IMG/VR virus record: IMGVR_UViG_2529293069_000017
From: a virus
Lineage: Duplodnaviria > Heunggongvirae > Uroviricota > Caudoviricetes
Strand: one strand, 5' to 3'
DNA length: 5,542 nt
Positions 1-3,000 of the stretch are shown here, piece by piece. Each line of letters opens with the position of its first letter. Positions within the stretch are counted from its first letter, which is position 1. Position numbers: made by a program.

Positions 1-3000
1 AAAACCTCATTCAGTAATTCATATCAGTTTGCAGGATGTTTCATTAAATAAAATAAAGGGTAATGTTCATTTCAATTACCCTTTATAACGAAGTTTCCTC
101 TGGTATCGTCATAAATGCATTCTTCATGTTTTACAATTATTGATGCCGTTATTGGTTCCCGGGTCAGTGGGTGGGGTAAGCCTTCACCAGTCAAACGAGA
201 AAATGCAGCGGCATCAAATAAAGTACATACATCTGAACCATCTGAATTCTTCACAAAAATACCTTTTTCAGGCTGCTCCAGTGTAATTGGACATTGAATA
301 GCCTCAAGCGGGCACTGAAGTCTCTCTGGACAAACAGAAAACTTACATTGAGATATTTTGTTCTGAATACTCTCTTGCGATTGTGCTTCACCTGAGTCCG
401 AAAGCATACTTAGCATTCTCTCACCAAGGGCTCGAGGACCACTATTAAATCCCAAAAGCAATAACTCAGAAAGCAATCCGCCATTACCGCCACTGGATGA
501 AAAGCGCCCATTAGTAGAATCATACACAATACTGACAGTTTCACCACCGACTGTAATATCTCCGCGCCCATTGGCTACAATTCGGGCACGAACAACCTCC
601 ACCCCAAGATTAAATGAATGTGATCTAATATCTGAGGTTAATGGCATAACAAAGCTCCCTATTTTAATTTGAACTCCAGACTTAAATAGCTGTAACAAAC
701 ATCCCCCATACGTGACAACAAAAACCAGAGCAGGACTCCGGTTTTTGTGAACCCGTCGGCTATTTCATCCCGCCAATATTTTCCCACCTCCCGTCAGCAC
801 GCAGAATTTGCAGCGGTCTTACCACGCACTGTATCTGCTTTTTATCCGCATCCAGTATCACCACCTGTGTGATTACCCTGTCCTGCTCCGGAATAATGCC
901 ATTCTCATCTGACTCCAGGATGTCTGCCGGCCCCAGTCGCAGTTGTACTGTAAGCGACTGCCCGTGTTCACAGTCATCATGCTTTCCGCAACCACACAGA
1001 CGCTCCATAAGCTTTCTCAAAATATTCATGTCATTCTCCTGTTCTGCCTGTATCACTGCCCACTTCATCCAGTCCCTTAACATCCTGCCACGGCCCGTCG
1101 CCAAACCTGACCTGCAAATGCCGAAACAGCCCCTGAACCTGTGTGGCATCTTTGGGGTCAAGAAAGGTCAGTCCGGTGATGAGTGCACCATCTGTATCCG
1201 GGAACCAGCCATGGCTGTTTGTCTCAATAATGCTCGCCGGCCCCAGACGAAAACGGATTTGTGTCTCCCCCGGGTCGCCCTTCGGTCCCTGAGGTCCGGT
1301 TGCCCCCACCGGGCCAGCCGCACCTGTTTCTCCTTTCGGTCCCTGTGGGCCTGCCGGGCCTGCTGCCCCGGTGTCTCCCTTTGGACCCTGTGGACCTGCA
1401 TTTCCCGTCAGACCGGTCTCTCCCCGCTCTCCCCTGTCACCTTTCGGCCCCTGCGGGCCTGCCGGACCAGCATCACCTGCCGGTCCCCGTTCGCCGGTTG
1501 CCCCGACAGGGCCGGTGTCACCGCGCTCTCCCTTATCACCCTTCGGCCCCTGAGGACCCGCGGGCCCCTGTTCCCCCTTTGGCCCGGGAGGTCCCACCAC
1601 GGTGGGGATTCGGTTTACGGCCTCTTCCGCCGCTATCCTGCTTTGTTCCGCTGACTGTGCGCTTTCTGCTGACTCCCGGGCTTTTTCTGTTGCGGTCGTT
1701 GCATCCCTGGCTGCATTACCGGCTGCACTTTCTGCCGTCTTTCTTGACAATTCAGCTTCTGCTGCACTTTGTGATGACTCACTGGCTTTTTGAGCGGCCG
1801 CAGAGGCCGAGGACGAGGACGCCTCCTCTGACTGCTTTGCAGCGGCTGCACTTTCTGCCGCCTGCCGGGCTGACTCCGATGCATCCCCTGCTGAAGTGTC
1901 AGCATTTGCAGCGCTCTCTTCTGCCTGACTGGCTGATATGCCGGCATTCCTCGCGGACGTCTCCGCCTCTCCGGCATTCTTCTTCGCCTCCTCAGCGTGA
2001 CGCGCCGCTTCTTCCACCATCAGTTCAAAACGACGCAGTGCCTCCGGCCGGACGTCATCCTCCGACATGGCACCGAGAAAATCATTCAGCGTACCCGGTT
2101 GAGAATCTTCATACACGGTGATGGTCCCGGCATGTGACGGCGGGAATCCTTCCACCAACAGAATGACGCTGTACTGACCGTACTCAACGTCCATGCTGTA
2201 ACGACCGGCTTCATCCGGATTTTCAGAGGCCACCGTGTTCACCACCACCGTGCTGCTGGTCCGTCTGGCTTTCAGTTGAATGGTGCAGTTCTCTACCGGT
2301 TTTCCTGTGCCGTCTTTCAGTACACCTGAAATCTTTACTGCCATATTCACCCCACAAAAAAGCCCGCCTGAACCGGCGGGCTGTCATAACACTGTGTTAC
2401 CTGAATCAGAACTTATAACCGACACCCACGATGAAACCGTCAGTGCGCCAGTCGCCACTGCCGGAGCCTTCATAAGCAATATCAATGGCCACGGATTCGG
2501 TCGGGTTAAACTGCACGCCAGCCCCCCACGCCAGAGACGTGTTGCTGTGGCGACCGTCATCACTTCCGGTCAGCACATCGTGCGTTTTCCCCTTGTTGTC
2601 AGTTACGCGGAGATAATCCCCGGAGAAAGTCGACACACGGCTGTAAGCCACTCCCGCCATCGCATACGCGCTGAACCATTCATTCACGCGCACAGACGGC
2701 CCCGCCATTACGCTGAACCAGCGGTTACGAACGGAATCTTCATGCCAGCGGGTATCGCTGTAATGGGTCAGCTGGCGATTCTTGTCTCCTGCATAGCTGA
2801 ACGACGTCACCATCCCCAGTGTGTCCGTAAACTCATAACGGTATTTCACGTTAATCCCGTTCAGTTCATCGCTGCCAGGAACGTTCGTCGAGACATGAAG
2901 ATACCCCGCGCTCAGCGTGGACTGATGTTCAGACGCCCATGCAGGCGCACCGGATACGGCCAGACAAATGGCTGCGGACAAAATGGCGGCATAAAGTTTA

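Follow-up and report, generated by a model that had tools for sequence, protein, structure and literature searches.

A free-standing paralogue of the fibre-tip PfC domain encoded directly after stf in a lambdoid prophage of enterohaemorrhagic Escherichia coli

The window analysed in this work, a stretch of 5542 nt from the IMG/VR virus record IMGVR_UViG_2529293069_000017 (Caudoviricetes), constitutes the distal end of a lambdoid prophage of enterohaemorrhagic Escherichia coli (EHEC), with every gene carried on the minus strand in the order J, lom, stf (the side tail fibre gene), an open reading frame (ORF) for a product of 89 aa, and an NleG-family effector gene. The small ORF (760..1029, stop codon included) was identified with high confidence as a real, expressed late-operon gene whose product is a stand-alone paralogue of the PfC trimerisation/tip domain of the adjacent fibre, in which the collagen stalk gives way to a short helix at the N-terminus and a pair of conserved cysteines. 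As to its role, we tentatively favour that of a dispensable helper of the PfC fibre tip, made late, coupled in cis to the fibre gene, and mostly absent from the finished virion.

The small ORF and its kinship with the fibre tip

The product of the small ORF (MNILRKLMERLCGCGKHDDCEHGQSLTVQLRLGPADILESDENGIIPEQDRVITQVVILDADKKQIQCVVRPLQILRADGRWENIGGMK) carries its PfC domain at residues 28-88 (766..948, minus strand), which BLASTP aligned with residues 365-427 of Stf (1070..1258, minus strand) at 24 of 63 identical positions (38%, E=4e-13). An earlier interpretation made from the sequence alone (hereafter, the sequence-only reading) had estimated about 40% identity by eye; the shared motifs RLGPA, IT, LD, LQ, and DG.W all fall inside the BLASTP alignment, and the two duplicate stretches lie near the places first proposed for them. 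Smith-Waterman comparison of the ORF product with Stf gave a score of 113, against a mean of 27 (standard deviation 4.1, maximum 48) for 2000 shuffled versions of the ORF, none of which reached 113 (z about 21). The shuffle test, earlier named as the one on which the duplication could fail, thus upheld it and supports the small ORF as a diverged duplicate of the distal PfC domain of the fibre. At the DNA level, the two PfC-coding stretches share 52% identity with a longest exact match of 11 nt, which argues for an old duplication. On the same two figures, the template repeat of a diversity-generating retroelement was rejected as an explanation of the ORF, and a Pfam scan of five window ORFs (the small ORF, stf, nleG, lom, and the distal J fragment, the proximal J fragment being outside the scan) returned no reverse transcriptase domain.

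The view that the protein could be assigned to no named family proved wrong, since two collections recognise it. Pfam PF06820 (Phage_fiber_C, "PfC") matched residues 28-89 over the whole of its profile (1-64 of 64) with 125.1 bits against a cutoff of 25 (E=1.4e-36), and PHROG 576, an 89-position "tail fiber protein" family, matched residues 1-89 of 89 (E=1.3e-59). The RefSeq entry WP_001023994.1 is 100% identical to the window ORF and is the protein annotated as "phage tail fiber C-terminal domain-containing protein" in E. coli O157:H7 strain 493/89, the closest complete genome (98.9% identity across the whole window). We have high confidence that the small ORF is the same gene as L0122 (Z1484) of phage 933W, ORF68/ECs1229 of Sp5, and "gp59" of phi24B. 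The copies in these three phages are likewise 89 aa long, with 92-94% amino-acid identity to the window ORF and a TGA-C-ATG junction after the fibre gene; they follow the lateral fibre gene of a podovirus (EPclB/gp61), whereas the window copy follows the side fibre gene of a siphovirus (EPclA). The PfC of the EPclA and EPclB fibres (PF06820; Ghosh et al. 2012), for which trimerisation has been shown, is the same domain, from which the small protein differs in being free-standing, in carrying an N-terminus with a helix and cysteine pair in place of collagen, in having Cys68 where the fibres have Gly, and in lacking the C-terminal DEVGSDTGRTGE tail. An alignment of five ORF-type and three fibre-type PfC sequences contained 15 invariant columns.

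Beyond these matches, the Pfam scan of the ORF at E<=0.1 returned PF06820 alone, with none to Caudo_TAP, Gp38, Gp38_N, or Peptidase_S74. The NCBIfam scan of the small ORF returned nothing, the PADLOC models gave no match to it, no relative emerged among PDB sequences from either profile or single-sequence searches, and a literature search under the gene names L0122, ECs1229, and Z1484 retrieved only a microarray list. An exhaustive profile search of 1.84 billion representatives yielded 87 matches, mostly fragments of the two known PfC types and many of them named Escherichia, while multi-stretch matches to CarboxypepD_reg or SprB repeat proteins resemble composition or beta-hairpin noise. Two long, unrelated phage fibres (P0239 and P0253) contain 4-6 tandem units ending in '(I/L)(L/Q)(V/W)R..DG.W..I/L', like the last PfC strands, a hint that the domain derives from a widespread fibre repeat. 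A repeated '...LQVR..DG.W..I' motif of some phage fibres is a possible distant relative.

The junction between the two genes (1030..1040, minus strand) is composed of the stf stop codon TGA (1033..1031), a single C at 1030, and the ATG of the small ORF (1029..1027), with an AGGAG (1040..1036) situated 6 nt ahead of the ATG. These coordinates confirm that the ORF starts one nucleotide past the stf stop behind an AGGAG. Conservation was assessed in 86 copies and their loci, taken from IMG/VR contigs, 933W, O157, the window, E. albertii, and one 725-bp contig labelled "Xanthomonas pisi". The junction sequence GGAGAATGAcATG was found in 85 of these loci, and the odd one out has an AGGAG one base short next to an intact TGAcATG; the junction and its conservation together support the proposed translational coupling of the ORF to stf. 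The interval from the stf stop to the NleG gene measures 333 nt and is occupied by the small ORF, leaving no space for a Tfa of about 190 aa, so that the absence of a lambda-type Tfa ORF between stf and the effector gene is confirmed. A terminator-like hairpin with a U-rich 3' arm (718..748, minus strand; fold -24 kcal/mol, z = -2.95) begins 12 nt past the stop of the small ORF and closes the fibre module.

Ahead of the PfC part, residues 1-12 (994..1029, minus strand) form an amphipathic segment that is predicted to be helical and is kept in the diverged homologue P0223 (MTIFKKIKHCLFGC), and residues 11-22 (964..999, minus strand) form the Cys/His-rich segment LCGCGKHDDCEH, which the sequence-only reading took for a metal-binding knuckle. 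A four-ligand knuckle is not conserved. Among Cys and His residues, the E. coli set is invariant only at C12, C14, and H17, within this segment, and at C68; C20 is Arg in 48 of the 86 copies, the window copy having Cys where most have Arg, H22 is Asn in 21 of them, and P0223 lacks residues 17-26 and retains the two N-terminal cysteines (as CxxxC) and the equivalent of C68. A putative cysteine-based lock, formed through metal or a disulfide, is possible. The AlphaFold2 (AF2) monomer obtained from a 14-sequence alignment had a pLDDT of 58.5, falling below 50 at residues 10-23, and at this low confidence showed an all-beta PfC part, a helix at residues 3-12, and coil at residues 10-23. Foldseek comparison of the model with the PDB gave a best E of 0.77, with mostly Sm-like noise. 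An L-x-[GS]-C motif precedes C14 in all homologues, and the preceding 13 residues (MNILRKLMERLCG) are charged and amphipathic; a receptor-masking, Llp-like lipoprotein was rejected because, judged by eye, the hydrophobic core is lacking.

Selection, distribution, and inheritance with the fibre tip

Intact ORFs were present in 85 of the 86 copies. The ratio of nonsynonymous to synonymous polymorphism (pN/pS) was 0.17-0.18 over the small ORF, 0.096 in its PfC part, and 0.28 over its first 27 residues, all computed on multi-copy and recombining sequences whose pairs are not independent. As a frame control, the other two frames gave 1.35 and 1.48, and segregating sites were distributed over the three codon positions as 17/11/31. 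The small ORF is a real gene under purifying selection in the annotated frame only, and the fibre's own PfC, with a pN/pS of 0.245, is looser than that of the ORF.

A gene 92-99% identical to the window ORF is present in 296 phage records, which are nearly all Shiga toxin (Stx)-converting and include 933W and the Sp5/phi24B group of short-tailed phages. Of 5426 complete E. coli genomes, 698 (about 13%) carry it, with a median of 10 copies per genome. The only finds outside Escherichia were one diverged lineage and a degenerate copy within a prophage remnant of Citrobacter rodentium. A scan of genome contigs gave matches only in E. albertii and in the 725-bp contig (L083) of an assembly of the plant pathogen Xanthomonas pisi, whose ORF copy is 94% identical and is almost certainly E. 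coli contamination.

In each of the 86 loci, the gene upstream of the small ORF encodes a fibre ending in a Stf-type PfC, with the same TGA-C-ATG junction, and the conservation of the stf-ORF pair, which had been put forward for checking, is complete in this set. Likewise, all 296 phage records with one partner (fibre PfC or ORF) have the other at an identity of at least 80%. The pairing extends to the diverged lineage (locus L086), in which P0223 (79 aa, 53% identity) begins at an overlapping start behind AGGAGG. The fibre ahead of it is a 212-aa, non-collagen protein with a C-terminal PfC 38% identical to that of the window fibre, and P0223 is followed by an equivalent hairpin and then by NleG/SopA-type effectors. 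Positions 690..1580 of the window (minus strand), which cover the last, 3' collagen repeats, the PfC, the small ORF, and the hairpin, show 94% nucleotide identity with the short-tailed podovirus 933W, while the rest of the 933W fibre differs; fibre tip and small ORF move as one exchangeable 0.9-kb module between long-tailed and short-tailed phages. In phage Stx2-86, which has a 933W-type backbone (L091 9174-12056), the collagen fibre ends in a Peptidase_S74 intramolecular chaperone followed by a Gp38_N-type adhesin and then Cor. Given the PfC/ORF pairing elsewhere and the swap of both in Stx2-86, the small ORF is placed in a fibre-tip accessory slot that is exchanged with the tip. This supports the earlier proposal that it stands where a tfa-like accessory gene would be expected, the slot in Stx2-86 being held by the Gp38_N-type adhesin.

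A functionless hitch-hiker, that is, a duplication remnant kept only through its location in a mobile fibre module, would be in line with the narrow host range of the family and with its dispensability in the laboratory, described below. It is nevertheless very improbable in view of the frame-specific purifying selection with 85 of 86 copies intact, the retention of the pair in a lineage diverged to 53% (ORF) and 38% (fibre PfC) identity, and the ORF peptides detected in phi24B preparations.

Another account of the gene has been published. Mondal et al. (2016) described the 89-aa product that consists of PfC only, detected no signal for frameshifting, and proposed for it the part of a "reservoir" (PMC5155283), in which spare tip-coding DNA within the genome would recombine into stf to vary the fibre. 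Two types of sequence speak for such exchange, namely partial second copies of the ORF downstream in some loci and the 95-aa P0058 (L085 4-291), in which Stf collagen repeats are fused to an ORF-type PfC at shared G-P-A codons, a microhomology junction. P0058, however, lies at a contig start and was seen in 2 samples only, and it reflects either a genuine deletion across the microhomology or an error of assembly. An 11-nt match, the longest between the ORF and the Stf PfC at 52% nucleotide identity, is too short for RecA-type exchange. Moreover, the ORF-type PfC was found in 0 of 86 fibres, and purifying selection has conserved the start codon, the Shine-Dalgarno (SD) sequence, and the first 27 residues, none of which a reservoir would need. 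Taken together, the short homology, the lack of swapped fibres, and the selection on the start region and N-terminus make the reservoir improbable.

The partial second copies cover residues 37-85 or 58-80 and are located at L010 4683-4829 and, in L051, L060, and L063-L065, about 1 kb past the ORF, where they adjoin nleG-type genes or an inserted gene of 180 aa; they resemble scars left by recombination where effector cargo joins the fibre module. The fibre PfC itself (1070..1258; Stf C-termini in L003-L084) is a mosaic of about 8 polymorphic positions on a fixed background (GN/AS/MS/MR, H/N/Y, D/G, D/A, Q/R, G/V, L/F/M/V, and Q/R); the variable sites may be exposed at the surface or in contact with a ligand, and recombination between co-resident prophages may have shuffled them. 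The long-tailed phage lambda_2B8 has the same module, and about 2.5 kb downstream of its stf/small-ORF pair, past the effector genes, there is a 79-aa fragment of a 'tail fiber assembly protein' (L092 6307-6546), which may be what is left of an ancestral tfa of the lambda type that the PfC module and its cargo displaced.

Requirement, virion content, and candidate roles

In-frame deletions of Sp5 genes in K-12 MG1655 identified the fibre gene ORF67 as essential and ORF68 as one of the non-essential late genes, and Sp5 without ORF68 still formed plaques and lysogens on K-12 (PMC5155283). Ghosh et al. (2012) obtained recombinant EPclA, a Col-PfC fragment, and PfC alone as trimers without the small protein, and the PfC renucleated the collagen helix after melting, again without it (PMC3368898). 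The leading idea of the sequence-only reading was an obligatory Tfa-like chaperone without which the fibre is unable to fold, and it would agree with the position, the coupling, and the co-transfer with the fibre tip, as well as with the lack of any other candidate between stf and nleG. It is hardly credible now, being contradicted for Sp5, where the delta-ORF68 phage is viable in the K-12 background and the fibre gene is essential; recombinant EPclA and PfC trimerise and refold alone, and the Pfam scan gave no Caudo_TAP or Gp38 match. The gene is, moreover, carried by only 698 of the 5426 complete E. coli genomes, K-12 itself not having been checked directly. Thus, neither an essential assembly role nor a need for the ORF in fibre trimerisation is supported.

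In a 2026 preprint on the cryo-EM structure of phi24B (doi 10.64898/2026.04.10.717836), the supplementary proteome lists the ORF-specific tryptic peptides VITQVVILDADKK and ADGTWENIGGMK from purified phage preparations, showing that the protein is expressed. The two peptides account for 3 spectra each (at least 6 in total) against 2267 for the fibre protein gp61, a signal lower than those of Lom (23 spectra) and Q (19 spectra), both of which the authors regarded as contaminants. On these counts, the idea of a stoichiometric alternative tip subunit, also raised by the sequence-only reading, is not supported. The competitor for the receptor suggested in that reading found neither support nor contradiction.

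A minor fusion of Stf and the ORF product, carrying two PfC domains in tandem, would arise if ribosomes underwent a programmed +1 shift of frame at the stf stop (GAA-UGA-C by the SD-like AGGAG). The small ORF does lie in the +1 frame relative to stf and is open for 44 codons upstream, and the junction is nearly invariant; the re-pairing from GAA to AAU, on the other hand, is poor. The phi24B authors placed fusion sequences in their mass spectrometry database, but the part of the phi24B peptide table examined contains no junction peptide, and the fusion entry tops gp61 in a single gel slice, the low-mass EA1829 (25 vs 24; doi 10.64898/2026.04.10.717836), a signal that fits the free 10-kDa protein. 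Mondal et al. found no frameshift signal (PMC5155283), and the diverged homologue has an overlapping start instead. With no slippery site, no junction peptide in the examined part of the table, and a different junction in the diverged homologue, the fusion is highly unlikely.

A further possibility is that of a soluble tip mimic, in which a small trimer freed at lysis would occupy the ligand of the fibre on debris or neighbouring cells and so curb wasteful adsorption of progeny or adsorption of rival phages. The protein is a free copy of the distal domain, is made late together with the fibre, is essentially absent from virions, and is dispensable in plaque assays, and EHEC genomes carry a median of 10 modules, all of which is consistent with such a function. 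However, the PfC of the ORF is just 38% identical to that of the fibre, and a decoy should track the mosaic fibre tip, which is less conserved than the small protein; both points weaken the idea. In addition, there is no signal peptide and no PADLOC match, the ligand of PfC is not known, and the phi24B authors argue against binding of BamA by PfC. We therefore regard the mimic as unlikely.

The reading we tentatively prefer, an accessory of the PfC fibre tip, would operate as follows. The small protein would be translated in cis straight after each fibre chain through the stop/start coupling and would probably fold into a PfC-type trimer of its own. Its probable site of action would be the distal end of PfC-tipped fibres, where it may serve in a dispensable manner as a helper in tip folding or maturation, or as a loosely bound cap, and it would largely not be kept in the virion. 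Several points weigh against this proposal. Contact between the small protein and the fibre is something we infer, and the poor AF2 monomer rules out a structural argument. Since Sp5 without the gene is infectious and the fibre trimerises alone, any helper effect must be quantitative or conditional, and a virion signal under the level of contaminants makes a stable cap unlikely. The pN/pS values are also subject to the non-independence mentioned above. A more specific version is rather doubtful, namely that of a new class of fibre accessory, born by duplication of the domain it serves, in which the free PfC paralogue would template or register the three fibre chains transiently, or cap the tip, with C12, C14, C68, and H17 forming a metal or disulfide lock; such a class would be unrelated to Tfa/gp38 and specific to the collagen-like fibres of EHEC phages.

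Neighbouring genes and comparison with other fibre-tip systems

The stf gene (1031..2350, minus strand) encodes a collagen-like side tail fibre built on the EPclA plan (phage_tail_N, coiled coil, collagen, PfC), for which Pfam returned phage_tail_N, Collagen, and Phage_fiber_C. The lom gene (2406..3005, minus strand) is situated between J and stf; a GC-rich hairpin with a T-run (2361..2382, minus strand) separates lom from stf, and just before it, at ~2403, the window lacks 3 nt that are present in strain 493/89. The J (host specificity) gene is broken into two overlapping ORFs, 4216..5514 and 3072..4352, by a 1-nt insertion in the overlap (4216..4352, ~4296) relative to strain 493/89, whose J is a single gene of 3477 nt; the split reflects either a frameshifted, defective prophage or a sequencing error. 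On the other side of the fibre module, the NleG-family effector ORF (72..698, minus strand; Pfam) begins at a TTG, with the RefSeq homologue beginning 51 nt further in (576-nt coding sequence), and the closest genome bears two more DUF1076/NleG genes beyond the window end.

When compared to known accessories, location after the fibre gene and exchange together with the C-terminal part of the fibre are typical of the Tfa/U/G families. Like lambda Tfa, Mu U, and P2 G (Caudo_TAP), the small ORF directly follows the fibre gene and is exchanged with its C-terminal part; unlike them, it shows no sequence match to the family, is half the size, is homologous to the domain served, and is not required in Sp5. 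The Gp38-type tip adhesin (Stx2-86 gp22) occupies the same slot in the same Traversvirus backbone, whereas the small protein has no Gp38_N domain and is a trace virion component, which makes it unlikely to be a stable receptor-binding tip. The C-terminal Peptidase_S74 chaperone of fibres and endosialidases (Stx2-86 gp21) is also a trimerisation aid at the distal end, but it lies within the fibre chain and cleaves itself, in contrast to the small ORF, which is a separate gene product with no S74 match. In position and modular inheritance, the gene behaves like the Tfa/gp38 genes; it is not homologous to them, nor is it essential.

Four features were already published in 2016, namely the paralogy, the length of 89 aa, the missing frameshift signal, and the dispensability, and the literature contains both the finding and its main puzzle. 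New here are the quantitative evidence for selection, the strict co-inheritance with PfC tips over three fibre architectures, the contrast with the Gp38/S74 module, the mechanistic case against a reservoir, and the trace virion signal in the 2026 dataset. The carriers are essentially the effector- and Stx-carrying prophages of EHEC-type strains, in which the gene travels with the receptor-facing end of the fibre. This very abundant, selected gene lies beside the host-recognition end of EHEC phages, and its role, if known, could bear on prophage fibre assembly, on host choice, and on the spread of toxin and effector genes.

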